UHGV virus genome: UHGV-0208736
Strand: one strand, 5' to 3'
Source of the DNA: a virus
DNA: 31,562 nucleotides
Under the pieces are notes generated by a model, which was given only the letters and a program-made list of their open reading frames with translations, made no database searches and had not been told where the DNA came from. Every line of letters starts with the position of its first letter. The first letter of the stretch is position 1. Position numbers and translations under genes: made by a program. Shown piece by piece: positions 2,269 through 24,185 of the stretch.

Positions 2269-2404
2269 ACTCTTCTGATAACTTCTCCAGTACAAACGCC
2301 AGTTGCGCATTAGCCGCGTCTCTTCGCTGGCGTAGTCGTAGAACCTCTTCTTCGAGTTCCTTGATACGTTTTTGCAATGCCGGAATCGGGGCTATGATGT
2401 TCAT
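2267..2404 (-). CDS. unannotated 45-aa coiled-coil / leucine-zipper-like peptide (MNIIAPIPALQKRIKELEEEVLRLRQRRDAANAQLAFVLEKLSEE)
   Basis: ATG 2404-2402 overlaps the TGA stop of the upstream TOPRIM gene (ATGA); GAGGA-type SD about 10 nt upstream; heptad-like hydrophobic spacing; ends at TAG abutting the terminator; below the 60-aa cutoff of the ORF track. Confidence 0.35.
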   Translation of the reverse strand: MNIIAPIPALQKRIKELEEEVLRLRQRRDAANAQLAFVLEKLSEE

Positions 2405-2916
2405 CTGGTAAATTTCCTCGCAAGATACGTTATTTCTTCTTCACAAAGTTCATCAAGGTCGTTAGATACAAATCCTCTGGTGAATGTTTTGCTGAACTTT
2501 AATCCGGCTTTATCATTGTCACCAGCGCACACCCATTCATACGGCAAAAGTGACATTTGCTGCCGTAAATCGGCGGGTATATTCGACCCAAGTGCGCTTA
2601 CAGCATTGAACCCGCAATTCATCAAAGCAACAGCTTTAAATATGCTTTCGGTAACAAATACGGTCCCGCTTTCCGGAAGGTATTCCAACCCCCATAAACA
2701 AGGTCTTGTTGTTCTGGTGAAGTACCGCGCGTCTTTAGGGTTTTTACAGTTCTTTTCAGCATGTGGCTTGTAATGCTGGTATCCGCGTAGCCTACCGTCA
2801 AAGCCCCACAAGTAGAATGTAGCAACGCCAGGGGCTAAGACTACCCGGAGACGGTCGGCGTCAAACCCACGCGCCAGCAGATGAGCTTTAAGTAGAAACT
2901 CTTCGAAATCCATCAT
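2401..2916 (-). CDS. TOPRIM-domain protein (DnaG-like primase catalytic core fragment)
   Basis: 171 aa; conserved Glu in VFVTESIFKA and DxD in WVCAGDNDKAG match the TOPRIM signature; start ATGATG overlaps helicase stop (ATGA). Confidence 0.5.
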   Translation of the reverse strand: MMDFEEFLLKAHLLARGFDADRLRVVLAPGVATFYLWGFDGRLRGYQHYKPHAEKNCKNPKDARYFTRTTRPCLWGLEYLPESGTVFVTESIFKAVALMNCGFNAVSALGSNIPADLRQQMSLLPYEWVCAGDNDKAGLKFSKTFTRGFVSNDLDELCEEEITYLARKFTR

Positions 2917-4337
2917 TTCTTACCTCGTCTCTTCATGTAATTAAGCAATTCTTCCTGTACCGATTTCTTCTCGTCTGTACGCGCGGCAACAACCTCGTCC
3001 AGCGTGTCTTTAGCAACGATGTGATAGAGGAATACCGGGCGTTCGTGGCCTGCCTGCTTCTGGCGGACCGGGCCTATACGCTCGACAACCTGCAAATAGT
3101 GCTCAAGGTTCCAGCCTTGCGAAATAAACGCCAGATGGTGACCGCCGTCCTGTAAATTCAAACCATGCCCGGCTGACGCAGGATGCACGCATAAGATTTC
3201 GATTTCGCCTCGGTTCCACGCCTCCATCTGCTTATTACCCTTCGCACCTTTAGAAAATGCCTGTGCCTGAGGGAATCGCTTAAGGATGCGTTCCAGTTCG
3301 TGCTTAAACTGATAGGCCACCAGTAACGGCGCACCCTGTAACTCCTCGACAATGGATTCCAGCGCATCCAGTTTCGTGTCATGAACTTTCTCCCAGTCTT
3401 TTGTTGCTTCGCCGTCCGGCCCTGATATGTACACTGCGCCGGATGCAATCTGCAAGCACTTCGACGTCTTCGCCGCTGCGTTAGCTGCTTCAACTTCTCC
3501 GCTTTCCAGCTCCGCGAATAGCTTCTCTTCCATGTCGATGTACGCCTGACGTGCTTTTTTCGGCAGGTCAATTTCAACCGGCACGATAATCGGCGCTTCA
3601 CACCCAAACCACTCGGCGGCGTCAATCGTGAGGCTGATGTCTTTCATCTTCTGGTGAATTTCGTTATCGGCGCCCGGGCGTGCGTGATACTCGCGGGCCA
3701 TCGCCGACTTACCTTTCTGTACAGAGTTAAACCATCGGTCGGTGAATGCCGTGTACGAAGAGCCGAGGCGCTCGCCTGCATCGATAAACCAGTTCTGACC
3801 CCACAAGTCCTTGAGGCCGTTTGGTGATGGCGTACCCGTCAGGTTAATGAAGCGCTTAACCTTTCCGAACGCCACTTTGCTAAGCGCCTTTGCCCTCTTG
3901 CTACCACCAGAACGGCTACGGAACGATTTCAGCTTCGTGCTTTCATCGGCAACGATAACAGTAAAAGGCCAGTCGTCTTTGCCGTAGTAGTCAATCAGCC
4001 ACTCGATAACTTCGTAGTTTGTACACACCACGTTAGCGTCTGACTCCAGCGCCGCGATACGGCGCTTCTCTGAACCTGTCGCATCGACGACGCTCAGACA
4101 TGGGAATTGCCATTTCTCTTGTTCCGCGGGCCATGTACCCGATGCAACGCGCAACGGGGCGAGGATTAACACCCGGTCCTCTTCCGTAAGCTGCCCGTTG
4201 CGGAACAGGCGGTTTAGAACCCACATTGTCGACGAGGTCTTGCCGCCGCCCATACCGCACCATATATTGCAACGTGGGTGCTGTAACATAAACGACGTCA
4301 TTATTTTCTGATATTCCCTGCGCCTAAACTTACTCAT
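2913..4337 (-). CDS. ATP-dependent DNA helicase, superfamily 2 (SNF2/DEAD-like)
   Basis: 474 aa; Walker A GMGGGKTS, DExx-like box IVADESTKL; start ATG overlaps stop of upstream HNH gene (ATGA); SD GGGGAG upstream. Confidence 0.7.
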   Translation of the reverse strand: MSKFRRREYQKIMTSFMLQHPRCNIWCGMGGGKTSSTMWVLNRLFRNGQLTEEDRVLILAPLRVASGTWPAEQEKWQFPCLSVVDATGSEKRRIAALESDANVVCTNYEVIEWLIDYYGKDDWPFTVIVADESTKLKSFRSRSGGSKRAKALSKVAFGKVKRFINLTGTPSPNGLKDLWGQNWFIDAGERLGSSYTAFTDRWFNSVQKGKSAMAREYHARPGADNEIHQKMKDISLTIDAAEWFGCEAPIIVPVEIDLPKKARQAYIDMEEKLFAELESGEVEAANAAAKTSKCLQIASGAVYISGPDGEATKDWEKVHDTKLDALESIVEELQGAPLLVAYQFKHELERILKRFPQAQAFSKGAKGNKQMEAWNRGEIEILCVHPASAGHGLNLQDGGHHLAFISQGWNLEHYLQVVERIGPVRQKQAGHERPVFLYHIVAKDTLDEVVAARTDEKKSVQEELLNYMKRRGKK

Positions 4338-4831
4338 GCCTTGAACTCCCCGAAGTATATTTCCGCGGCTCTTTGGTATACGCGCGACGCTTCTTCTATA
4401 GTGTCAAAATAGCCAAGGTGGATGTATTTGTTATTGACGCCTATTCTGGCGCGCCACCTGCCAGAGGGTATTTGGTAGACCCCTATCGCACCGCTAGTGT
4501 TATGTGGTGAGCAGTCTCGGTTCTGAATCTGCTGGCTCCTGGTTGCTGGCCTTATATTATTTATGGCGTTATTAGCCCTGTTACGGTCTTTATGGTCAAG
4601 CTCACCATTATGATATTCTCCGTAGACGAAAGCCCATGCCAGATGGTGGGCTTTTATTCTTACACCGGAGACCGTAATAACTATGTATCCTTTGTCGTTT
4701 GGTCCCCCGGCTACCTCCCCCGCATTTCTACCTTTTATGCTTACTTTCCGTGTAAATATGCCTGTTTCGGGGTCATAGTTAAGAAGACGTTTCGCCTCCT
4801 CAATATCAGGCCTTCTAGTTAATTTACTCAT
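4334..4831 (-). CDS. HNH homing endonuclease with AP2-type DNA-binding domain
   Basis: 165 aa; HNH core HHLAWAFVYGEYHNGELDHKDRNRANNAINNIRPAT; AP2-like GVYQIPSGRWRARIGVNNKYIHLGYFDTIEEASRVY; ATGA overlaps on both sides. Confidence 0.8.
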   Translation of the reverse strand: MSKLTRRPDIEEAKRLLNYDPETGIFTRKVSIKGRNAGEVAGGPNDKGYIVITVSGVRIKAHHLAWAFVYGEYHNGELDHKDRNRANNAINNIRPATRSQQIQNRDCSPHNTSGAIGVYQIPSGRWRARIGVNNKYIHLGYFDTIEEASRVYQRAAEIYFGEFKA

Positions 4832-5760: not shown

Positions 5761-5888
5761 TCCAGCACCCACAGATAAATTGCGATAAACATGCCAAATA
5801 CGGCAACCATCATGCCGTATTGACCCTCGTGACAGTAGACACCGGCGGCGAATCCAGCCAGTACTGCGATAATCAGTTTACTTAGCAT
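5757..5888 (-). CDS. unannotated 43-aa hydrophobic (membrane) peptide
   Basis: MLSKLIIAVLAGFAAGVYCHEGQYGMMVAVFGMFIAIYLWVLE; ATG at 5888 lies 8 nt inside the 3' end of the DNA polymerase gene with AGAGGT SD 7 nt upstream. Confidence 0.35.
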   Translation of the reverse strand: MLSKLIIAVLAGFAAGVYCHEGQYGMMVAVFGMFIAIYLWVLE

Positions 5889-8148
5889 AACGGTACACCT
5901 CTTCCCCGGCCCATGTTAGTGGGAACCCTTTGGCCCATTCAGGTAATGAGCATAACAGGTCGCCCATCTCTTTAACCGTGTACTCCGGTGTGTCTGGTGT
6001 TTCGGCGACACACTCATCGTGTACGTGAAGTACAATTGGGTAGCCCGCTGCCTCGACCGTCAGGAGTCCGTTGACCAGTAAATCACGGCACAACGCTTGA
6101 ATGATGTTTTCACACAATTTTCCGCCGTGTGTGTACAAAGTCGTCCACTGGCGGGTGGTCTGATTTTCGCCCTGGTATTTAATGCGAACGTTAGTTGTTA
6201 CGCGCCCATCCTCGTCGGTCTCTTTAGTGACGCTTAAACCTATACCAGGGTAGGACATGATGCGCCCAGACGGCAGTTCCACACACAACCACCAACCCGG
6301 CACAAAGTTACCCTGTCTGTCTTTCTCTTTAGTACGCCAGATGCGAATAGCCCTGTCGCCGTTAAGGCGTACTCTGGCCCCCGCCCAAAACTCTCGTCCC
6401 GGATTTCTGATTGCAGCAATCACCGAATCCTTAAGGTCGTTCCAGAATCTCACTGTTTCCGGATGGGCCTCGCGCCACATGCGCTTGATAGCGTCGCAAG
6501 TGCGCCAGACTTCCTTAGGCAACACGTAAGAGGCCCGTTCGTCCTTTTTACCAGGTTTTGGCGGCCGCTTAGCCTCCTGAATCCGCGCCCATTCATAGCC
6601 TCGGGCAGTGGCGGCCCATATATGGTCAGGGAATGTCCCCCGCATTGTCTCCGTCATTTTAAAGAGGTCCAGCCCATAAGTTTTAGCCATAGTCATGAAG
6701 GCCCCTACACCTCCCTCGTAGCCGAGGCCCAGCTCGCAACATTTCCCGACCTGTCGTAGGTCTTTACGGGTGGCTTTCAGCTCTATAGGATCCATGCCAA
6801 ACATCTTGCCCGCAGTGGCGCAATAAATATCAATCCCCGCGCGGAACGTCTCAAGGGCAGATGTCTCCCCCGCCGTCCAGGCTAACCCACGGCCTTCCAC
6901 GTTCGAGTAGTCGGCAACGAGTAACTTATTACCTTTTTCCGGGATGATGCAGCTGCGGACAGTCGAGGCCGTTAGCTTAGATACATCAAAACGGCGATGC
7001 GCCCGGCCCTTTAAAAGCAAATTGATGCCGAAGGATAGCGGGTTAAGCCTGCGGTTCCAGTCTTCGTCGGACTCCCACGGCTGGCGTACGAGTTTCTTTT
7101 CCTCGTTAGTCGGGTCGTCGTGGTAGTACCCACGCGACAGGTTCTGCGGCTGGAACCCTTTGCCCGCAAATCGTAAAGTGCGCTTTGCCCCACCGTACTG
7201 GATGCAACCACGGCGTCGTCCGTCTTTGGACCGTCCTAGCAGGAGCGGTTTATATTTTGTTGACGCCGTGGAGGCCGCGCCGAGGCGCATCTCAATGATT
7301 GTGCGCGCATCGTTAGGTAAGTCGTCGTCCTCTAGCAAACCTTCGAGCGTTGCTTTCTGCGCATTATAAATATTGTAGGCCGGTGCCAGTTCCCGAAGGA
7401 TTGGCAGGAAGTCTTTGCCCGTTAGCTTCCCGCCAAATTTCGCGCGGGCCTCGTTTTTTAGCTCTTGCTTGTGACGTTCAACTGCCGCGACCGCCGCCTC
7501 AGCAAGAGCCGTATCGACAAAGAAGCCTCGGTCGTTGATTAGCTGGTCCAGTTCCAGTACACGGTCTTCGAACTCAGAGTTACCCCAACGCGGCAGCTTA
7601 TGGAAGACCTCACGCATTGCAGTGATGTCGCTTACGGCGTACTTGATGAACAGCGCCCACTCGTCCGGGTGTGTTTCCGCGGTGTAGCGACGGATTTTGT
7701 AGTTCTTCGGCGTCGGTTTAGAGAAACGCTGAATCAGCGCCTTGCCCCGCTTATCTTTCGCGTTGTCCGCAGATACTCCCAGCACTTCGCATAATGCATC
7801 GAGTGAACCCGGCAGCGCGTGGCGAAACGCCCAAATCATCGTATCAATGGTGTTGCTTACCGGAATATCAAAACCCCAGCAGTGCTTCATGATGAGCCTA
7901 TCGAACATTAAAAAGTTATGGCCCACGATTTTCATACGTCCGCGCATAACATTACGGAGCGCCATGCGTAGGCTTATTGGCATTACTGGTTCGGAAGTGC
8001 AATCCCATACTTCTACTGGACCATCATCAACGGCATACGTACAAATTATAACCTCTGTCGTTGGGTGCTCCGCATACGCATACGACCCGACTTTCTTTAA
8101 GTCTGCTTCGGAGAATGTCTCGGTATCCAGGTATAATAAACTAGTCAT
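5878..8148 (-). CDS. DNA polymerase, family A, with N-terminal 3'-5' exonuclease domain
   Basis: 756 aa; Exo I motif YLDTETFS; polymerase motif A LLVADYSNVEGR; motif C VLHVHDECV; AAGGAA SD upstream of ATG 8148. Confidence 0.85.
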   Translation of the reverse strand: MTSLLYLDTETFSEADLKKVGSYAYAEHPTTEVIICTYAVDDGPVEVWDCTSEPVMPISLRMALRNVMRGRMKIVGHNFLMFDRLIMKHCWGFDIPVSNTIDTMIWAFRHALPGSLDALCEVLGVSADNAKDKRGKALIQRFSKPTPKNYKIRRYTAETHPDEWALFIKYAVSDITAMREVFHKLPRWGNSEFEDRVLELDQLINDRGFFVDTALAEAAVAAVERHKQELKNEARAKFGGKLTGKDFLPILRELAPAYNIYNAQKATLEGLLEDDDLPNDARTIIEMRLGAASTASTKYKPLLLGRSKDGRRRGCIQYGGAKRTLRFAGKGFQPQNLSRGYYHDDPTNEEKKLVRQPWESDEDWNRRLNPLSFGINLLLKGRAHRRFDVSKLTASTVRSCIIPEKGNKLLVADYSNVEGRGLAWTAGETSALETFRAGIDIYCATAGKMFGMDPIELKATRKDLRQVGKCCELGLGYEGGVGAFMTMAKTYGLDLFKMTETMRGTFPDHIWAATARGYEWARIQEAKRPPKPGKKDERASYVLPKEVWRTCDAIKRMWREAHPETVRFWNDLKDSVIAAIRNPGREFWAGARVRLNGDRAIRIWRTKEKDRQGNFVPGWWLCVELPSGRIMSYPGIGLSVTKETDEDGRVTTNVRIKYQGENQTTRQWTTLYTHGGKLCENIIQALCRDLLVNGLLTVEAAGYPIVLHVHDECVAETPDTPEYTVKEMGDLLCSLPEWAKGFPLTWAGEEVYRYAK

Positions 8149-8614
8149 GGCAATAAAATTCCTTATGCAGTTTTTCTCTTAATTTCTTTACCGCGCTTTC
8201 TGCTTCTTCAAGAGTTCCGTAGCTACCAGCATTGTAACTTTTGTAGTTAAAGTGTACCCGCCCATAAAATCGGTTGCCGTTTTTAACTACTCCCTTAACT
8301 CCCGTTCTAGCTCCCTTATTTTTAGCGTTTCGCACATTATCTGCGGTGGTTGCTTTCCTTAGGTTAGAAATCCTATTGTCTAACCTGTCTCGGTTTATGT
8401 GGTCAAGAGGTCCCTCGGGCCATTCACCGTACTCGAAAAACCAAGCAAGCCTGTGGGCCATGTAATATCTGCCCATATAAGGTATTCGCCAGTATCCACT
8501 ACTATTGATGCATCCTGCGATGTCTCCAGGTTTTCCTCGTCTGTACGTAGGTTGTATCCATGTGAATATCCCGGTTTCTCGGTTATAGCTAAGAAAATCT
8601 TTTATATGTTCCAT
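8141..8614 (-). CDS. HNH homing endonuclease with AP2-type domain (start taken at ATG 8614; the track start at 8638 is TTG)
   Basis: HNH core MAHRLAWFFEYGEWPEGPLDHINRDRLDNRISNLR; AP2-like GVKGVVKNGNRFYGRVHFNYKSYNAGSYGTLEEAESA; AT-rich relative to neighbours; stop overlaps polymerase start by 8 nt. Confidence 0.75.
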   Translation of the reverse strand: MEHIKDFLSYNRETGIFTWIQPTYRRGKPGDIAGCINSSGYWRIPYMGRYYMAHRLAWFFEYGEWPEGPLDHINRDRLDNRISNLRKATTADNVRNAKNKGARTGVKGVVKNGNRFYGRVHFNYKSYNAGSYGTLEEAESAVKKLREKLHKEFYCHD

Positions 8615-8626
8615 TCTGACTCCGGT

Positions 8627-8649
8627 AAAAAGGCCCAATGAAGGGCCTT
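8627..8649 (-). terminator. rho-independent terminator on minus strand after the SSB-like gene
   Basis: Minus-strand RNA: AAGGCCC-UUCAUU-GGGCCUU followed by UUUACC; 20 nt downstream of the TAA at 8669-8671. Confidence 0.45.
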
Positions 8650-8668: not shown

Positions 8669-9307
8669 TTAGCGGCGGCGACGTTCGCGACGCGGTGCAG
8701 GTTCATCATCCTCAAGGTCGTTAAGGTCTACGGTAGCTCCGGCACCGCCGAATGCTTCGCCATCATCCTTAAAGCGAACACCGAGGAGTTCTACGCCGAG
8801 GTTTTTATAAGTTGAGTACCAATACACATCAACTACGATATTAGCGTAACAACCAGAATAAACTTCCTTACCTTCTACATCGTCACCTGCTTCGGTAAGG
8901 CCCTTGACTACACGCCCGCCGCGTTGGCACTGCACCTCACCCTCAGAAGTCGCGATCATAGGTTGCTTACGGCTCTTAGCCATGAAATACAAACCTTCCT
9001 CAAGCCCTTCAATCGGTGAATCACGCTGTGCGAGGTCGCGGAACGCACATTTATCTGCATGGTTTCCGAAGCCGAAGTTTTTTGACATCCACTTTTCGGC
9101 GGCAGAAGCACTACCTAACGCTTCAGTCATAACTTCAGTTACAGCGTCTTCAATTTTCTCAATTTGCGGGTCGTCTTTATCCAGATACGCTGTAAGCTGG
9201 TATTGGCCTTCTACTTGTTGCCCCTGACTATTTACACGGTCCGCTGCTTTCTTATAAACGTCTACCCATCCGATACGCACGTTGCTCAGTTTAACTTTGA
9301 TACCCAT
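8669..9307 (-). CDS. possible ssDNA-binding protein (T7 gp2.5-like / DUF2815-like), acidic C-terminal region
   Basis: 212 aa; N-terminus MGIKVKLSNVRIGWVDVYKK...GQYQLTAYLDKDD resembles the gp2.5-like SSB family pattern (from memory); C-terminus DLNDLEDDEP; GAGGAA SD upstream; first gene after promoter P2. Confidence 0.4.
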   Translation of the reverse strand: MGIKVKLSNVRIGWVDVYKKAADRVNSQGQQVEGQYQLTAYLDKDDPQIEKIEDAVTEVMTEALGSASAAEKWMSKNFGFGNHADKCAFRDLAQRDSPIEGLEEGLYFMAKSRKQPMIATSEGEVQCQRGGRVVKGLTEAGDDVEGKEVYSGCYANIVVDVYWYSTYKNLGVELLGVRFKDDGEAFGGAGATVDLNDLEDDEPAPRRERRRR

Positions 9308-9362: not shown

Positions 9363-9392
9363 ACTATAATAGCTAACTATTCGGGTTGTCAA
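9363..9392 (-). promoter_or_regulatory. sigma70-type promoter P2 (minus strand): -35 TTGACA, 18-nt spacer, -10 TATAGT; core AACTATAATAGCTAACTATT (plus 9362-9381)
   Basis: Reverse complement reads TTGACA-N18-TATAGT; the core differs from P1/P3 only by inversion of the central 4 bp; located in the 89-bp intergenic gap upstream of the SSB-like gene. Confidence 0.5.
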
Positions 9393-9396
9393 CACT

Positions 9397-9570
9397 TTAT
9401 TTAAGTTTCTTCGGAACTACCTTATAAATATAGGGCTGCACCGCCTCATGCTTTGAGTTCTTCTCTTCTGCAATTTTGTCGGCGTCGGCGCGTTTAGCGT
9501 GAACAGAGACAATATCAAGTTCTTGAATAGAGTATCGGCGGTGATATCGCGTGAGAATATAAACCATCAT
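9397..9570 (-). CDS. hypothetical protein (57 aa from ATG 9570)
   Basis: MMVYILTRYHRRYSIQELDIVSVH...; strong SD GAGGAGGA 6-7 nt upstream; ATG overlaps stop of the exonuclease gene (ATGA). Confidence 0.45.
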   Translation of the reverse strand: MMVYILTRYHRRYSIQELDIVSVHAKRADADKIAEEKNSKHEAVQPYIYKVVPKKLK

Positions 9571-10808
9571 TCTAAATCCTCCTCTGTTACCTGATTCCAC
9601 TCAGGCCGTTTGTCGTCTGTCGTTGCGACACATGGTGCGCCAGGCTTACGGGTAATGAAGTCTTTCAGTTCTTCTTCCGGTATGACTTTAACCGCTTCGG
9701 TCGGCGTCATGAGCACTTCTTTAGTCAGCTTGTAACCGTATTTCTCGTATACCGCCTCTGCATCTTTCCATGCACGATTACCTGGGCGACCCTCAACCAG
9801 TTTGTACCCAGGCACTTTCTTACCGGAATGCAACGCGGCGGCCATAGCTTTTTCAACCTTGTCGATGTGCTGGCGCAGGAACGGCAACTTCTCATACTCA
9901 GCGACGAGTTGCTCTGGTGTCAGTTCCAGCACAAAGTTGTCCCCCAGTTCTTCCGCCAGTACAGAATTAACCGTCTTTGTACGCGCGGCGCACTGTTCTG
10001 AGAACCGGCACCACTGGCAGCCATCGACAGACGGCTTGAAGTCCGACGCTTTCAGGTTCTTCTTGCCACGGAAATAGGCGTCAAGCGCTAACAGCGCCCG
10101 TTTCTGTGCGAACTTAGCAAACAGTTCCAGACCTTCAACCGAGATGTCCCACTCCGAAGCGCCACCAGCGTACGGCTGGAAGATGACCAGACGAACGATT
10201 GTTATGTTATAACGTCTCTTGAGTCGGCGATAAACACCGAGAGCGTAAAGCATAAGCTGCTTGTTTTCTTTCGCTTCGACACGATGCCGTCCTGTTTTAA
10301 GGTCTCCGATGATGAGCATATGCCCGTCGGTGTTCGCCAGTTCCTGTACGGCAACAAGGTCAGCGGTTCCGAACGTCTCAACGCCTTCGTAGCCCGGATG
10401 CAATACCTCAGTAAGATTGACCCGCATTTCCAGCTTGGCGTAAGTCGCTACGTCGATAATCAGTTTGCAGTAGTCGGTGTACTTGCGCACCTGCTCAATC
10501 ATGTCCGCCGTAATCAGTACCGCGCCTTTCATCGGACTGATTAGCGCCTCAATCGGCCCTTTACCTTCATCCAGAACATAAGCACCAACTTCACGCTCTA
10601 ACGGCAGCGCAGTTCCGCGGATATAGGCGTTGAGATGTACCTCAGCTATGGTGTGCATAGCTGTGCCTAATACCGCAGCTTTACCGGACGTGTTAGGGAT
10701 ATCTTTTTCACAGGCCAGTGATGCTGGGCAGGTTAACCACTTTTTAGCACCGGATGGCGACAGTAAGGCGTGCACATCATTATTGCCGCCGCGTTCTTTT
10801 AAAATCAT
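9567..10808 (-). CDS. Cas4/RecB-like PD-(D/E)xK exonuclease with putative Fe-S cysteine cluster and C-terminal extension (start at ATG 10808; the track start at 10823 is GTG)
   Basis: N-terminal Cys (WLTCPASLAC) plus C-terminal C-x2-C-x5-C (CQWCRFSEQC); nuclease-like core IIGDLKTGRH...QLMLYALGVY; GGAG SD upstream; ATG overlaps stop of upstream gene. Confidence 0.6.
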   Translation of the reverse strand: MILKERGGNNDVHALLSPSGAKKWLTCPASLACEKDIPNTSGKAAVLGTAMHTIAEVHLNAYIRGTALPLEREVGAYVLDEGKGPIEALISPMKGAVLITADMIEQVRKYTDYCKLIIDVATYAKLEMRVNLTEVLHPGYEGVETFGTADLVAVQELANTDGHMLIIGDLKTGRHRVEAKENKQLMLYALGVYRRLKRRYNITIVRLVIFQPYAGGASEWDISVEGLELFAKFAQKRALLALDAYFRGKKNLKASDFKPSVDGCQWCRFSEQCAARTKTVNSVLAEELGDNFVLELTPEQLVAEYEKLPFLRQHIDKVEKAMAAALHSGKKVPGYKLVEGRPGNRAWKDAEAVYEKYGYKLTKEVLMTPTEAVKVIPEEELKDFITRKPGAPCVATTDDKRPEWNQVTEEDLE

Positions 10809-11077
10809 GCCCTGTTCTCCCACTGGTCTATTAAATGTCGTGTCTTATGGTCGCAATGTAAGGCCCAGCCATACATCGACTCGAAGACATAAAGGTCAGG
10901 CCTGGCGAAAGTCGTGCGCTTAATCTGCGACACGTGACGGCCTATATCTTTAGGTCGCGGCGCTTTGCCTAAGTACGCCATCTCTTCCATCTGGTGCGCA
11001 CCGGACGGCGCACGCAACAGCCATAGCGCCTCTGTGTTATCCCGACTGTCAACGGCGCGGTAGAGTTGGTAAATCAT
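10805..11077 (-). CDS. hypothetical early protein (90 aa)
   Basis: ORF preceded by conserved initiation cassette ACTGAGGGTCGGAATT-ATG. Confidence 0.45.
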   Translation of the reverse strand: MIYQLYRAVDSRDNTEALWLLRAPSGAHQMEEMAYLGKAPRPKDIGRHVSQIKRTTFARPDLYVFESMYGWALHCDHKTRHLIDQWENRA

Positions 11078-11359: not shown

Positions 11360-11830
11360 TTATTCTTCTTCGAAATACTTGTTCTTGATTGCCGTCAGGC
11401 GTTCAAGATATTCTGCAAGGTCTTCATCTTTAATCGCGGCAATCTTCATCTTCTTACCGGTGAACTCTTCCAGCAGTTCATCAGAATCATCGCACGCAGC
11501 ATCGCTTGGGCCCTCGTTAATCGCATCGTCGATAGCCTGAATCTGGTCACGCAGAGACTGGTAATCGACTTCTTCCTTCTCTTCTTCCGGCTCTGGCGCT
11601 GGCTCCTCTACTTTAGCTTTACGAGGCTTGCGTTTCGGCTTCTCTTCTTCTGCGGGTTTAGTGTCGACGATGTCTTCACCTTCGACTGGGATTTCTTTTG
11701 TTGCTTCTTTTGCAACAGTAGGCTCGATTGTTGCAGTTTCCGCAACGACAACCTGTTTTGCACTGTTCGCCGCAATCAGTTCGTGGGCAACTACGAAACG
11801 TTCCAGTAATTTTAAGAATTGGTCTAACAT
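11360..11830 (-). CDS. highly acidic early protein (156 aa), first gene of the early operon; candidate DNA-mimic / anti-restriction or host-takeover factor
   Basis: Very Glu/Asp-rich (EEEKPKRKPRKAKVEEPAPEPEEEKEEVDYQ...DDSDELLEEF...KDEDLAEYLER); strong SD GAGGAGAG; directly downstream of promoter P3. Confidence 0.5.
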   Translation of the reverse strand: MLDQFLKLLERFVVAHELIAANSAKQVVVAETATIEPTVAKEATKEIPVEGEDIVDTKPAEEEKPKRKPRKAKVEEPAPEPEEEKEEVDYQSLRDQIQAIDDAINEGPSDAACDDSDELLEEFTGKKMKIAAIKDEDLAEYLERLTAIKNKYFEEE

Positions 11831-11861: not shown

Positions 11862-11890
11862 ACTATAATAGTTAGCTATTCACATGTCAA
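11862..11890 (-). promoter_or_regulatory. sigma70-type promoter P3 (minus strand): -35 TTGACA, 17-nt spacer, -10 TATAGT; core AACTATAATAGTTAGCTATT (plus 11861-11880)
   Basis: Reverse complement reads TTGACA-N17-TATAGT; 20-bp core identical to P1; about 30 nt upstream of the early operon start codon. Confidence 0.55.
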
Positions 11891-11934
11891 TGGGCTTTTC
11901 TAAAATAATTAATATGGTACTATTCACATATCAA
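11876..11934 (+). promoter_or_regulatory. candidate plus-strand promoter (TTCACA-N16-TAAAAT) with two 15-bp direct repeats CTATTCACAT(G/A)TCAA as putative operator sites
   Basis: Repeats at 11876-11890 and 11920-11934 (14/15 identical, 44 bp apart); repeat 1 overlaps the -35 of both divergent promoters; repeat 2 lies between the predicted TSS and the SD of the HTH gene. Confidence 0.35.
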
Positions 11935-11954: not shown

Positions 11955-12170
11955 ATGCAACCATCTGAACTAGGCATCCGTGTAGAACAACGCCGTAAAG
12001 AACTCGGCCTCTCCCAGCGCCGTCTGGCTGTCCTGGCTGGCGTTTCCCAGGGCGCGATTAACCAGCTGGCACTCGGTGTAACCCAGGACGTCCGCCCGGC
12101 AACGCTGTTTAAACTGGCGGAAGTGCTGGAAGTAGATGCCAAGTGGCTGGCGTTCGGTGAAGGGGCTTAA
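11955..12170 (+). CDS. Cro/C1-type (XRE family) helix-turn-helix transcriptional regulator
   Basis: 71 aa; RKELGLSQRRLAVLAGVSQGAINQLALG is a canonical XRE HTH; SD AAGGAG 8 nt upstream; only plus-strand gene inside the minus-strand module. Confidence 0.75.
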   Translation: MQPSELGIRVEQRRKELGLSQRRLAVLAGVSQGAINQLALGVTQDVRPATLFKLAEVLEVDAKWLAFGEGA

Positions 12171-12186
12171 CGCCCCCTTTCTTTTT
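12162..12186 (+). terminator. rho-independent terminator after the HTH regulator gene
   Basis: GGGGC-TTAAC-GCCCC hairpin (stop codon within loop) followed by CTTTCTTTTT. Confidence 0.5.
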
Positions 12187-12188
12187 AC

Positions 12189-14450
12189 CTATTCCAAATC
12201 TTCCTCGGTTACTATCAGCATCTCATTCGGTTCGTATATTGTCTTCGGAATCTTGTTATCGTTTATGCCCCACGGCAACCGGTATTGCTTAGGTATAGGC
12301 CTGTTGTTGTTATCCAGACCTGAGACGATAATCCCGGCCTCGTGCATCTCCTCCAGTTTCTTTCGAAGGTCGTTATTAGCATTAATTGGTACGCCGTAAC
12401 TATCTTCTTTCGCCGCTTTGACGATAGCTGACATAGAGAACCCTCGTTTATCGTCACCCTGCTCCTGCAATTTACCCAATGCGTAAATAACCGTAGCCTC
12501 TTTGGTGTCCAGTTTCTCGAACTGGCCTACCTTTTCTTTAACGGCTTCCTTCTGTTCGTCGGTCAGACCTTCTACTTTCTTCACGAAGACAGAGAATGCG
12601 TTGAAGTTAACAAAGACATCAATATGCGGATTTCCTGCGTCAAAATCGCGTACATCATCACTACTATACCCTTCCGGAAGACCCATGAAGTTGTGAGTTG
12701 GTTCTTTCTTTTCTGGCGGCTCCGCTATCTGAATCTTCTGTATTACGAACCCTCTGGCTTTTTGCCGTTCTCCGTTTCGGTTCTTTATGTGGTACAGGTT
12801 TATCTCTAAGTTATTGTCGTTGTCCGGCTTATGCAGGAACATCCCGTTGTCGATGGAGTTGTGGAAATCACTACCACCCTTCGGCATCATGCCGTTCTCG
12901 GATGGTACTGTTTCGTCGATGTTTTTAGTCGGGTGCACCATAGCGCCTACCGCGGCGTTAAGCGTCGACGCTATTTCGTTAAGCGCCTGCGCCGCCTCTT
13001 TCATCGACCTGTTGTCGTTCTCGTCAAAACCAGGTATGCAAGTTTGCAGGGTATCAAACGTAACCTTTACAATTTTCTCTTCACCGGCAACACGACGCAT
13101 CATTCTCACCGCCTGGCGGCGCCACACCTCATCGAGTAAGTTACACCCTTCCGCGACACAATCGATGATGTGCAAGCGGTCAAGGCTATCGCCGAGGGCA
13201 ATCTGTAAAGATTTTTTATGCCTCTCGAACGACTGCGCACCTTCTCCAGCGAAAATGAACGCATGCCCTTCAGCAACCTCTGCCCCGCCGAACGCATATC
13301 TTTTTTCGGCAGCAATAGCGGCGTCAATCGCCATACTAAATGTTGACTTACCAGTGTGGGACTTTGCACAAATGTAGAATGATTCGTTAGTCTGCATAAG
13401 ACCGTCCACTACGGAGTAAGCAGGTTCTTTTTCTACTTCCGGCTCGTCTTCAAGGTCTTCAAGCGTGCAAGTTACAGGCTCCTCGTTCTCTGTGCGGTGC
13501 AGTTCTTCAATATCTTCATCCGGTAAATCAGGCAGAGCCGCACGGATGCTATTAATACTGATAGGTTGCTTGTCTACGTTAAGCTCGTCCGGAAGACCGC
13601 ACATACGCAGGGCCAAATGCTGCCGACGGTTTAGCTCAGTGCAAGCGCCATTGTTTGTATGCTGGCAGACAAAGCGCACTTCTTTACCGTCAAGCATGAT
13701 GCTTGTGGAGCCTTTGCCGGTATGCAGATGTTCGTTAGGGCATGGAACTTCGTACCCGCGCCCGGAAGATAAAGCGTCAAGGCCAAGCTCCGCTTCGCAG
13801 AAATGCGCTATATCAGCGTTAAGCCCATGCTCATCGGCAGCAAGTGTCTTAGCTTCACGTTTACGCAGCCCCATCTCTTCGGCTTTCTTGATGTACCGCT
13901 CCGCACGGATAACGCGCCCTTCAGTAACAGTTATCTTTGACTCTTTATGAGGCAGGTAGATAAGGCGGTTGCCGTCTTCGGTGCAGTGGTCGCGCAACGC
14001 TTCGTCTATTTCTAACTCCGCACAAATAGCACGTTGCACCATCCATGCATCGTTAGAGTTAAATGGAGTGCGGGCAGGTACGAGAACGCGGAAAGCGTAG
14101 TCACCGTTTTTACACGCGTGCTGGTGCGACGCCGTTGTGTGCAGAATATTGAAGAACGTCGCGTTCTTGAATTTGCGGGTAAGGTCGCGGTACTGAGTAC
14201 GGTTGAGATGGTCAAAGTCGAACTTAACCACACTATCTTCCAGAATCGCGTTCTTACGGCGACCCCCAACAGGTGCAATTGCTTTCTGCTTAATCTTGGC
14301 AGCGTCGTACTCTTCCTTAGACCACGACGGATCCACGGATAAACGCTTGGATGTATCGCAGACATACTCTACGAACTGCTCCAGCGGCATTTCACGAGCT
14401 ACAGGGTTTTTATCGAATGTGTTGCGCAGTGTCGCAAAAACAATATTCAT
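12189..14450 (-). CDS. DNA primase-helicase-like replication protein: archaeo-eukaryotic primase (AEP)-type N-terminal domain plus P-loop NTPase domain
   Basis: 753 aa; AEP-like motifs KFDFDH (DxD) and TTASHQH (sxH); Walker A AKSHTGKST; Walker-B-like LHIID. Confidence 0.6.
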   Translation of the reverse strand: MNIVFATLRNTFDKNPVAREMPLEQFVEYVCDTSKRLSVDPSWSKEEYDAAKIKQKAIAPVGGRRKNAILEDSVVKFDFDHLNRTQYRDLTRKFKNATFFNILHTTASHQHACKNGDYAFRVLVPARTPFNSNDAWMVQRAICAELEIDEALRDHCTEDGNRLIYLPHKESKITVTEGRVIRAERYIKKAEEMGLRKREAKTLAADEHGLNADIAHFCEAELGLDALSSGRGYEVPCPNEHLHTGKGSTSIMLDGKEVRFVCQHTNNGACTELNRRQHLALRMCGLPDELNVDKQPISINSIRAALPDLPDEDIEELHRTENEEPVTCTLEDLEDEPEVEKEPAYSVVDGLMQTNESFYICAKSHTGKSTFSMAIDAAIAAEKRYAFGGAEVAEGHAFIFAGEGAQSFERHKKSLQIALGDSLDRLHIIDCVAEGCNLLDEVWRRQAVRMMRRVAGEEKIVKVTFDTLQTCIPGFDENDNRSMKEAAQALNEIASTLNAAVGAMVHPTKNIDETVPSENGMMPKGGSDFHNSIDNGMFLHKPDNDNNLEINLYHIKNRNGERQKARGFVIQKIQIAEPPEKKEPTHNFMGLPEGYSSDDVRDFDAGNPHIDVFVNFNAFSVFVKKVEGLTDEQKEAVKEKVGQFEKLDTKEATVIYALGKLQEQGDDKRGFSMSAIVKAAKEDSYGVPINANNDLRKKLEEMHEAGIIVSGLDNNNRPIPKQYRLPWGINDNKIPKTIYEPNEMLIVTEEDLE

Positions 14451-22514: not shown

Positions 22515-23015
22515 CTATTTATAACCGTTGTTGAATGTTGTCAGCCCGTGGTTTATGTGGAATTTATTGGCTACGGACATGTAAATTCTTTCCGCAAAAG
22601 CGTCCTCTATTCTGTCAAATGTTTTACTAATCTGCTTGCCATTGACAACGGCATACGCTCTCCACTTAGTTTTTCCTTTCCGCGCCACGCCAGTAACTCC
22701 AGAGGTATTATCTTTGCGCCTTTTCACGTTAACCATGTTGTCCCTTCTTGATTTGCAGGACAGGTTTTCAATTCTGTCATCACATGTATCATGGTTAGTG
22801 TGGTCTATGACAAATCCTTTCGGAATCTTACCTGAGAACATCTCATACACCACCCTCGACCTTTTAAACTTACGGTTGCCAAACATGACGTACCAATAGC
22901 CGTTTTTACACAAACTCCCAGCCACATCACCTACATTCACATCGTTACGGCGACACGATTTTACTTTCCAGTATAGGACGCCGTTTTTGTAGCTAAAAAC
23001 TTCGCTCCAGTCCAT
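22515..23015 (-). CDS. HNH homing endonuclease with AP2-type domain (third copy)
   Basis: HNH core GFVIDHTNHDTCDDRIENLSCKSRRDN; AP2-like GVTGVARKGKTKWRAYAVVNGKQISKTFDRIEDAFAERIY. Confidence 0.75.
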   Translation of the reverse strand: MDWSEVFSYKNGVLYWKVKSCRRNDVNVGDVAGSLCKNGYWYVMFGNRKFKRSRVVYEMFSGKIPKGFVIDHTNHDTCDDRIENLSCKSRRDNMVNVKRRKDNTSGVTGVARKGKTKWRAYAVVNGKQISKTFDRIEDAFAERIYMSVANKFHINHGLTTFNNGYK

Positions 23016-23030
23016 CCTTTCACCTGTATT

Positions 23031-24185
23031 TTAGTATGTTGATTTGGGGTTCATATCTCGCAGCATTTCAACAGGTATACTTATACGGGACACCTCGCCG
23101 TATCGTTTATGGTATGTAATCACATTTGCGCTCCTGCCGGAATAATAGCCGCCTTTACTAGAATACTCATCTTTAGCCGCTAATGTCTGGTGTTGCTCAA
23201 CAATTAGAAGATTAGTCTCTTTAACCGCCCTGTGATGAAGGTGGCCCGTATGGACATATGTGAACTTACACTGCCCGTACATCTCACGATACTTACCAAT
23301 TATAGACTGCTCTACCCTAGTAAAGTTAGAGCAATGCCCGTGGTGCGCCGAAATCATACAATCCCCGAACTTGTACGCATAATACGGCGATACCTCCCGG
23401 TTAACCTCAACACGAGGCTCGTTTGTGTACACCTCATAGAACATCTCTCTGAGCCACAGAGAAGAACTAAGGTCGTGGTTTCCCTCGCAAATAAGAAGTT
23501 TAACCTTCTTGTGTTTTCGCAGGCACAGCGAGACCGCCAGCTTGATAACCTTAACGGCTGTACGTATCATTTTAAACAGGCGACTATCCGCTGAAAGAAT
23601 ATGGCCGCTCATAGGGGTCATTGCCTTCATGCCATCGTAGTGCATCTGGTCCCCTAAGAAGTTAATGATACACTCCCCGCTCTGCGGACTCATACAAACC
23701 GCACTGTTGAACCAGTCAACTGCGAGAGATTCCGCAATTGTGGTGTCGTAATCATCTCCGCCTTCTTCTTGACACGCCAGCATACCGATGTGATGGTCCG
23801 TTATTGTGTAAAGATTTAATAAGTCGTCATCTGTGTCATTTTTAAGCAAAGTGGCCGGTTTATACTTAGGTAAATCTTTTTTCATCTCGTCCACAACGGC
23901 TTTCATCAATTCGACCTGACGTTCAGCGTCGGTGTCAGTCTTAACCCATTGCAGCTTAGTGTTGCCGAACTCGTCCACAAGTGACGACGTCCCTTTAATC
24001 TTGTATCCATCTGGCACAAGGTGACTAACGTCTCGCCCGTGACCTACGCCTTTCTTTGCCAGCTTCGCCTTACGGATACGAATAACGCGGTCTGAGATGC
24101 CGTATTTACGGGCTATATCGATATTCTTCATCCCGGCATTCAATTCTTCCTGTAACTGCTCATCGGTTATTTTCTTCTGGGCCAT
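23031..24185 (-). CDS. HTH-fused calcineurin-like metallophosphoesterase (Mre11/SbcD- or class III phosphodiesterase-like motif set)
   Basis: 384 aa; N-terminal HTH IDIARKYGISDRVIRIRKAKL; complete phosphoesterase motif series TDHH (DxH), FLGDQMHYDG (GD), ICEGNHD (GNHD), SAHHGH, HTGHLHH (GHxH); SD GAGGA. Confidence 0.65.
   Translation of the reverse strand: MAQKKITDEQLQEELNAGMKNIDIARKYGISDRVIRIRKAKLAKKGVGHGRDVSHLVPDGYKIKGTSSLVDEFGNTKLQWVKTDTDAERQVELMKAVVDEMKKDLPKYKPATLLKNDTDDDLLNLYTITDHHIGMLACQEEGGDDYDTTIAESLAVDWFNSAVCMSPQSGECIINFLGDQMHYDGMKAMTPMSGHILSADSRLFKMIRTAVKVIKLAVSLCLRKHKKVKLLICEGNHDLSSSLWLREMFYEVYTNEPRVEVNREVSPYYAYKFGDCMISAHHGHCSNFTRVEQSIIGKYREMYGQCKFTYVHTGHLHHRAVKETNLLIVEQHQTLAAKDEYSSKGGYYSGRSANVITYHKRYGEVSRISIPVEMLRDMNPKSTY

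Follow-up and report, generated by a model that had tools for sequence, protein, structure and literature searches.

Identification of the nuclease gene

The stretch of DNA analysed here, UHGV virus genome UHGV-0208736 (31,562 nt, hereafter the window), is a Kagunavirus-like coliphage with a lytic-type siphophage genome. We studied its nuclease gene of the DUF2800 family at 9567..10808 (− strand), which encodes 413 amino acids (aa) plus the stop codon. It lies in a − strand block with the order primase-helicase, acidic 156-aa protein, two small open reading frames (ORFs), nuclease, small ORF, Gp2.5-like single-stranded DNA-binding protein (SSB) or annealase, HNH insertion and family A DNA polymerase (PolA), and the block continues past PolA with VRR-NUC, HNH-AP2 endonuclease and SNF2 helicase genes. 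A preliminary description of the sequence had proposed a Cas4/RecB-like nuclease with a ~140-aa C-terminal extension at this locus, and the ORF was found to be real, with 413 aa read from an ATG at 10808. The gene is an ordinary, already annotated member of a widespread phage family and is not new. What is added here is a folded, conserved C-terminal domain and a shared tail motif, both presented as hypotheses for experiment.

The ATG at 10808 was preceded by a Shine-Dalgarno sequence (GGGAG) 8 nt 5' of the start. A GTG at 10823 was considered as a longer start and rejected, because the homologues are 413 aa long and begin with MILKERGG at the same initial Met; the GTG start was found in no homologue. 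The nuclease gene is coupled by an ATGA start/stop overlap to the upstream 90-aa ORF (10805..11077, −; phrog_4965, of unknown function). At the other end, its TGA overlaps the ATG (9570) of a downstream small ORF, again as ATGA; this ORF (9397..9570, −; 57 aa) varies among related phages. The translated nuclease contains seven cysteines, C27, C33, C114, C264, C267, C273 and C393.

In the Pfam scan the protein matched DUF2800 (PF10926) over its full length, aa 13–402 aligning to model positions 1–368 of 368 (E 1.8e-67, 228.5 bits against a cut-off of 21). PDDEXK_1 (PF12705) matched aa 16–273 with E 9.4e-10, and PHROG 69 ('exonuclease') gave E 5e-122. The preliminary description had suggested a comparison with profile hidden Markov models (HMMs) of Cas4 and RecB nuclease domains; the RecB side of it held through PDDEXK_1, while the Cas4 model PF01930 gave no match, which places the protein outside the Cas4 family proper. 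At E <= 0.01, DUF2800 and PDDEXK_1 were the sole Pfam matches. The NCBIfam scan of the nuclease and of its C-terminal 147 aa yielded no family, and phmmer against PDB sequences returned chance matches only (E about 1).

At the DNA level the gene was ~90% identical to those of the Kagunavirus-like coliphages M01, Bas74 SonjaBuckley, NTEC3 and Golestan, and in such relatives it is annotated as exonuclease, PD-(D/E)XK nuclease or DUF2800. The family was found by tblastn in 1513 of 50,697 phage records, 1492 of which covered >=80% of the query, and an exhaustive search returned 11,651 cluster representatives matching the nuclease at E <= 0.001. DUF2800 had been assigned to the RecB-like PD-(D/E)XK nucleases in 2012 (PMC3424549). 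A fused architecture was observed in homologue P0133 (758 aa), in which the DUF2800 region (aa 354–756) follows an uncharacterised N-terminal part of ~350 aa.

Nuclease core and cysteine cluster

The nuclease core comprises aa 1–289 (9942..10808, −) and has a RecB-type PD-(D/E)XK fold, as assigned from conservation, an AlphaFold2 (AF2) model, Foldseek and a profile search. Its catalytic motifs are GTAD150, D169-L-K171 and Q184xxxY188. The Cys27 codon lies at 10728..10730 (−), and the cysteine cluster C264-x2-C267-x5-C273 is encoded at 9990..10019 (−). Conservation was measured in an alignment of 141 homologues of 28–60% identity. Invariant positions were C27, G48, H52, D150, D169, K171, G173, Q184, Y188, C267 and C273, and C264 was conserved in at least 90% of the homologues. 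The conservation of the cysteines had been named in the preliminary description as decisive for its proposal, and on this point it stood. The invariance of the nuclease motifs and cysteines reflects selection and not chance.

The alignment-based AF2 model had a mean predicted local distance difference test score (pLDDT) of 93.5 and a predicted template modelling score of 0.86, with the core mostly >94. When the model was compared with the PDB by Foldseek, only the N-terminal ~290 aa were matched. The AdnA nuclease domain gave E 4.5e-6, and further matches to the core were ACE1 (a Cas4-family enzyme), Dna2, MGME1, type I-C Cas4, RecE, EXO5 and AddA/AddB. These fold relatives are junction- or end-processing nucleases, several of them with iron-sulfur clusters. 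A profile search of PDB sequences likewise found the AdnA nuclease domain (E 6e-5); the alignment included the SPS..CP cysteine as well as DLKxG and QLxxY, and C-x2-C-x5-C fell in a second aligned stretch.

The core is thus a RecB/AddB/Cas4-type PD-(D/E)XK domain, for which Mg-dependence is taken from a homologue. The preliminary reading of a PD-(D/E)xK nuclease with an N-terminal Cys and a C-x2-C-x5-C cluster agreed with the PDDEXK_1 match, the fold matches and the AdnA profile alignment. The four residues C27, C264, C267 and C273 have the arrangement of the iron-staple nucleases AddB, AdnA/B, Cas4, Dna2 and EXO5, and most likely a [4Fe-4S] cluster is bound by them in the core as such an 'iron staple'; we infer this cluster from the sequence, as we infer the in vivo substrate, the docking partner and the biological role proposed below.

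A conserved C-terminal domain

Exactly 140 residues follow C273, the last cysteine of the cluster, in agreement with the preliminary estimate of ~140 aa. This part had been described as an extension with no recognisable motif, and neither statement was borne out. The C-terminal third alone aligned to DUF2800 HMM positions 252–368 with E 3e-17, and the C-terminal 147 aa alone matched PHROG 69 with E 1.4e-42. In the 141-homologue alignment its occupancy was about 1.0 and its column entropy was like that of the nuclease core. The conserved domain itself (aa 296–402; 9603..9923, −) consists of three helices, a beta-hairpin motif VPGxKLVxGRxGNRxW, and the motifs SPTxAEK and DKRP. Near-invariant residues were G329, G334, K336, V338, G340, R345 and W347 in the hairpin motif and D399 and R401 in DKRP. 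In the AF2 model the region past the last cysteine was folded (pLDDT 87–97), and only aa 281–300 dropped to about 75; the C-terminal domain had a pLDDT of 94, which marks it as confidently folded. The C-terminal 140 aa are therefore an integral, conserved and folded domain of DUF2800 and no phage-specific extension.

Structure matches in BFVD were further members of DUF2800 and, with weaker scores, phage proteins of 110–170 aa that stand alone. 'Siphovirus Gp157' was examined as a relative of the domain and rejected: the BFVD match was weak (E 0.16) and had no sequence support. It was not taken as homology because 44 fragments of the C-terminal domain, compared with Pfam at E <= 1, gave DUF2800 only, with no Sipho_Gp157 or other family. 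An hmmsearch with a profile of the domain, run over all ORFs of 87 loci and of the window, detected no standalone copy. The near-invariant Lys, Arg and Trp suggest that the domain may help to bind or position DNA junctions.

Acidic tail and linker motif

The nuclease ends in an acidic tail (aa 403–413, EWNQVTEEDLE; 9570..9602, −). The replicative primase-helicase of the window (12189..14450, −; PHROG 3228, E 7e-296; Pfam AAA_25) ends in ...IVTEEDLE (tail codons 12192..12212) and the nuclease in ...QVTEEDLE, the last 7 residues being identical. Among the six-frame ORFs of the window, these two proteins were the only ones found to end in [DE][DE]DL followed by <=3 residues. A DNA repeat was rejected as the source of the identical tails, because 3 of the 21 nt were changed synonymously and the similarity stopped at the tail. 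The tail, in the form (V/A/I)(T/S)EEDLE, was kept in nearly all of 120 close homologues of the nuclease.

The Gp2.5-like SSB or annealing protein (8669..9307, −; Pfam Enc34_ssDNA-bd; PHROG 112) carries an acidic VDLNDLEDDE near its C-terminus, followed by a basic run PAPRRERRRR. Such a basic run is kept in Kagunavirus, Jerseyvirus and Dhillonvirus; in T7 gp2.5 and most homologues the acidic motif forms the very C-terminus. A different type of tail was seen in the Firmicute-like contigs L026, L028, L061, L069, L071 and L087, where the SSB ends in ...NPITGQPY, ...TGLPM or ...DNVPF, a type that recalls the bacterial SSB tip, and the nuclease in ...EAFKEE.

The pairing of nuclease and primase-helicase tails was found to follow lineage. 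The respective pairs were ITEEDLE and TTEGDLE in Jerseyvirus, SDSDLE and ADEDLE in locus L010, ATDEDLSDE and ATDDDLKD in Dhillonvirus, and NDFDDVT... and EEFDDLS... in APSE-2. In phage Chi, four proteins end in W/F-acidic-(D/E)EV or WDDEE, namely the nuclease (AWDDEDDDDEV), the SSB (AWDEDEDWEDEV), the primase (PFDDEDEV) and the SNF2 helicase (VWDDEE). Between loci L014 and L016, ...DLI/DLV was replaced by ...EFI/EFV in nuclease and SSB alike.

Co-variation was evaluated by local-alignment scores of the last 20 aa of the nuclease against shuffled pairings in 39 loci dereplicated at <60% identity. The tail scored 21.0 against its own SSB (shuffled 17.6 ± 0.8, p about 1.5e-4) and 17.4 against its own primase-helicase (shuffled 13.0 ± 0.8, p <= 5e-5). 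Against its own PolA, used as a control, no co-variation was observed in these loci (p 0.48), and against its own SNF2 helicase p was 0.07. When ~18 ORFs per locus were ranked, the tail most similar to that of the nuclease belonged to the SSB or the primase-helicase in 16 of the 39 loci.

The interdomain linker (aa 278–298; 9915..9977, −), where model confidence is lowest (pLDDT about 75), contains an internal acidic motif, LAEELGDNF, resembling the tail. Across the family the linker motif co-varied with the tail of the same protein, with a score of 18.7 against 16.4 ± 0.35 for shuffled pairs (z 6.5, p <= 2e-4); a control segment showed no co-variation with the tail (p 0.89). Linker and tail pairs include ADFEDLTEAP and DDFEDLTPPDLI, TATDEDLGDD and EATDEDLSDE, and, in the window, LAEELGDNF and VTEEDLE. 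Linker inserts of ~60 aa were observed in the DUF2800 proteins of Dhillonvirus (Bas16; L002 7977..9410) and Jerseyvirus (SLMP1; L090 6001..7428). The low-complexity insert of Dhillonvirus adds one more copy of the tail motif, TATDEDLGDD.

The new observation is that the nuclease tail is common to the primase-helicase and resembles the tail of the SSB, which suggests tethering to the replication machinery. By sequence resemblance, the tail and the linker motif are plausibly docking peptides common to the primase-helicase and the SSB. A partner interaction through the C-terminal extension, as proposed in the preliminary description, is thereby kept in a narrower form, confined to the tail and linker motif, and the 140-aa region is no longer regarded as an extension.

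Conservation of the replication module

The module of primase-helicase, DUF2800 nuclease, Gp2.5-like SSB, PolA and SNF2 helicase was found to recur in Kagunavirus Bas74, Jerseyvirus SLMP1, Dhillonvirus Bas16, Chi and APSE-2, in Xylella phage Sano, Liberibacter phage SC2 and Corynebacterium phage SamW, and in 80 viral metagenome loci, related metagenomic loci being sought with a 13-sequence alignment. The gene order of the window, primase-helicase, DUF2800, SSB, (HNH), PolA, is that of all annotated relatives, and replication and recombination genes were conserved neighbours in every locus examined. A duf2800/gp2.5-like/polA module has already been described (PMC8093625). The PolA of the window (5878..8148, −) carries a 3'-5' exonuclease domain; DNA_pol_A and DNA_pol_A_exo1 were its only Pfam matches, and no 5' nuclease domain was detected in it by Pfam.

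Comparison with known systems

The closest experimental counterpart is the DUF2800 protein Bas14_0045 (B14T) of phage Bas14, reported in a July 2026 preprint (10.64898/2026.07.14.737667). There, all escapers of retron IX mapped to this gene, and B14T sufficed to trigger the retron. B14T cut the retron multicopy single-stranded DNA (msDNA) at the base of its stem-loop in Mg2+, and D177A/K179A abolished cleavage. The protein purified after proteolysis comprised aa 18–295, the remainder being called predicted disordered, and the function of B14T in the phage was left open (10.64898/2026.07.14.737667). The window nuclease belongs to the same Pfam family. The Bas16 orthologue of B14T, 47% identical to it over the full length, has the same D-x-K (catalytic pair D178/K180), the same position by a Gp2.5-like SSB and PolA, the C-terminal domain and a DL-type tail. 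Unlike the window nuclease, the Dhillonvirus protein carries the ~60-aa low-complexity linker insert, after which the conserved C-terminal domain follows, and this insert probably explains the call of disorder in the preprint. Here the region past residue 295, treated as disordered in the sole experimental study of DUF2800, is both conserved and folded.

With the nuclease domains of AdnA/AdnB and AddA/AddB, its best fold and profile matches, the window nuclease has in common the SPS..CP cysteine, GxxD, DLKxG, QLxxY and C-x2-C-x5-C. In those enzymes the nuclease domain is fused to a UvrD-like helicase motor from which it receives DNA, whereas the window nuclease is free-standing and bears an unrelated C-terminal domain and acidic docking-type motifs. 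Cas4 and ACE1, the latter an Argonaute-associated Cas4-family enzyme, share its fold class and four-cysteine arrangement, but the window nuclease has neither a Cas4 Pfam match nor cas or Argonaute neighbours; Cas4 ends soon after the last cysteine, whereas the window nuclease runs on for 140 aa. The eukaryotic flap- and end-processing nucleases Dna2, MGME1 and EXO5 match the core in fold, but the identity is only 11–19%, the accessory domains are different and there is no homology to the C-terminal domain. Dna2, MGME1 and EXO5 cut single-stranded DNA (ssDNA) at junctions together with polymerase and SSB, as in the mechanism proposed below.

The tails are reminiscent of phage T7, in which gp2.5 ends in ...DEDGDF and gp4 in ...SNDTDF. 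The gp2.5 tail is reported to contact polymerase and helicase (PMC10359462; PMC5686142), and the acidic tail of a T7-type SSB can occupy the DNA groove of SSB (PMC5686142). The SSB of the window is a Gp2.5 homologue. As in T7, one kind of short acidic C-terminal motif with a terminal hydrophobic or aromatic residue is found on two or more proteins of the replisome within a single phage. In contrast to T7, where the gp6 exonuclease is of a different fold and lacks such a tail, the window nuclease bears the tail and an internal copy. The motif itself differs by lineage, being TEEDLE, DFDDL...DLI or WDDEDEV.

Proposed role and alternative explanations

The reading that we favour, and regard as reasonably probable, is that of a RecB-type nuclease with an iron staple: its C-terminal domain would pack on the core, and its linker and tail would tether it to the hub that SSB and primase-helicase use; it would cut ssDNA at junctions or ends and act with the annealing SSB in recombination-dependent replication or repair. 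The VTEEDLE tail and the linker motif copy the C-terminal tails of the phage's primase-helicase and Gp2.5-like SSB, and both acidic motifs might dock the nuclease on the hub that these two proteins use. The putative hub could be the family A polymerase or, as in phage T7, the ssDNA-binding groove of the SSB. Once tethered, the nuclease would cut ssDNA at single-strand/duplex junctions, such as 5' flaps, forks and resected ends. Together with an annealing-competent SSB it may serve recombination-dependent replication, break repair and possibly primer or flap removal.

A wider proposal, which we put forward more tentatively and regard as somewhat less likely than not, is that DUF2800 nucleases in general are replisome components by way of a lineage-specific acidic 'tail code' common to SSB, primase-helicase and nuclease (in the last of these twice, in the linker and at the C-terminus), and that the C-terminal domain is an undescribed junction-positioning fold. 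If true, the T7 gp2.5/gp4 tail paradigm would be extended to a nuclease and to ~3% of sequenced phages, and this reading would explain why defence systems such as retron IX use decoys of the substrate of the nuclease. The conserved, folded C-terminal domain and the shared docking-type tail offer a concrete model, open to experiment, of what DUF2800 nucleases do in a replication module that is very common among phages, and of why defence systems sense them.

Several observations weigh against tethering of the nuclease to the replication machinery. Bas14 escape mutants with truncated B14T are viable (10.64898/2026.07.14.737667); the DUF2800 nuclease is therefore not essential for replication, at least in Dhillonvirus, and is probably accessory rather than essential. 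The purified B14T fragment (aa 18–295) was active without the C-terminal domain, which is thus dispensable for the nuclease chemistry. The SSB of the window ends in its basic run and not in the acidic motif, and the Firmicute-type SSB tail (..NPITGQPY) is unlike the tail of the nuclease; as these loci differ, the shared-tail pattern is not universal. Exact 4-mers shared by nuclease and SSB tails showed no own-locus excess (6% in the own locus against 5.1% in other loci; 0–0.2% between nuclease and PolA tails), and much of the nuclease/SSB tail similarity is therefore family-wide and not lineage-specific. The acidic tails could also be intramolecular DNA mimics instead.

The last two points would suit a free-standing recombination exonuclease working with the Gp2.5-like annealase, in the manner of lambda Exo-Beta or RecE-RecT and with no replisome tether; its acidic linker and tail would then serve as autoinhibitory DNA mimics or be no more than compositional features. 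The gene adjoins an annealing-type SSB in all loci, RecE and lambda Exo are among the fold matches, and T7-type SSB acidic tails bind their own or a neighbour's DNA groove (PMC5686142). However, composition can hardly account for seven residues that still match the primase-helicase tail exactly when the DNA has changed at synonymous sites, or for the matched tail changes in Jerseyvirus, Dhillonvirus, Chi and L014/L016, and the PolA control was without a co-variation signal. We regard this explanation as unlikely, though it deserves the most weight among the alternatives. Clearly less probable is a nuclease of host takeover or counter-defence that degrades host DNA or defence nucleic acids such as retron msDNA and does not process phage DNA. 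Retron IX msDNA is broken down by the homologue both in vivo and in vitro, and plaques form without this protein (10.64898/2026.07.14.737667), and the record annotation of the T7 gp6 exonuclease gives it a role in host-DNA degradation. Yet msDNA cleavage activates immunity and therefore harms the phage, and the preprint interprets msDNA as a decoy that stands in for the natural substrate (10.64898/2026.07.14.737667). The gene moreover keeps a fixed place in the replication module even in phages, and hosts, that are very distant from one another, and the replisome-type tails point to phage DNA transactions.

The preliminary description had also linked the protein to host adaptation by clustered regularly interspaced short palindromic repeats (CRISPR). 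Interference with host spacer acquisition, or its hijacking, by such a protein would fit the Cas4-like cysteine arrangement and fold, and the acquisition of host-derived spacers has been associated with Campylobacter phages that carry a Cas4-like gene (PMC4283603). We consider this highly improbable and did not retain the link. The nuclease has no Cas4 Pfam match, AdnA-type nuclease domains are closest to it in sequence and fold, and phages with a member of the family infect many hosts, whatever the CRISPR type. The native type I-E CRISPR system of Escherichia coli works without Cas4. The conserved neighbours are all replication and recombination genes, and no cas genes were found in the Pfam-scanned window proteins, the Bas74 annotation or the loci whose annotation was read, no dedicated CRISPR-array search having been made.

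Promoters and other genes of the window

A sigma70-like promoter, TTGACA-17-TATAGT, was located in intergenic DNA at 11862..11890 (−), 5' of the unit orf156/orf71/orf90/DUF2800/small ORF; it agrees with the consensus at 11 of 12 positions (a consensus match only). Its −35 region is duplicated at 11920..11934. The gene had been placed in an early operon, and this was traced as far as the strong sigma70-like promoter (11890..11862) upstream of the transcription unit. A second sigma70-like promoter (9363..9392, −), again an 11/12 consensus match, lies upstream of the SSB gene. A 21-nt block is common to the two promoters; within it, in the spacer, lies the 14-nt palindrome AATAGYTARCTATT, probably an operator. 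An Rfam scan of the whole window detected no RNA family.

The first gene of the nuclease unit encodes the acidic 156-aa protein (11360..11830, −; phrog_3127, of unknown function). Its internal sequence IKDEDLAEY resembles a DL-type tail, and homologues are retained in Bas74, Jerseyvirus and Dhillonvirus. Antisense within the leftward replication block lies a gene for a 71-aa XRE-type helix-turn-helix regulator (11955..12170, +), with a terminator-like hairpin at 12159..12180 (+). Its counterpart in Jerseyvirus SLMP1 is gp11, and the Bas74 annotation holds no gene so oriented.

Three genes for HNH_3 homing-type endonucleases were found (8141..8638, 4334..4831 and 22515..23015, all −). The one at 8141..8638 is an insertion that separates the genes for SSB and PolA, with an 8-nt overlap at the start of PolA; Bas74 lacks it, and its SSB and PolA genes sit ~60 nt apart. 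That at 4334..4831 also bears an AP2 domain. Just downstream of the SNF2 helicase, a 171-aa protein (2401..2916, −) gave a weak Toprim-like match (E 1e-4). A second nuclease-like gene (23031..24185, −) matched phrog_704 'DNA repair exonuclease' with E 5e-150 and had no Pfam match; it lies antisense within the tail-gene block, as does its counterpart in Bas74 (Bas74_0022).

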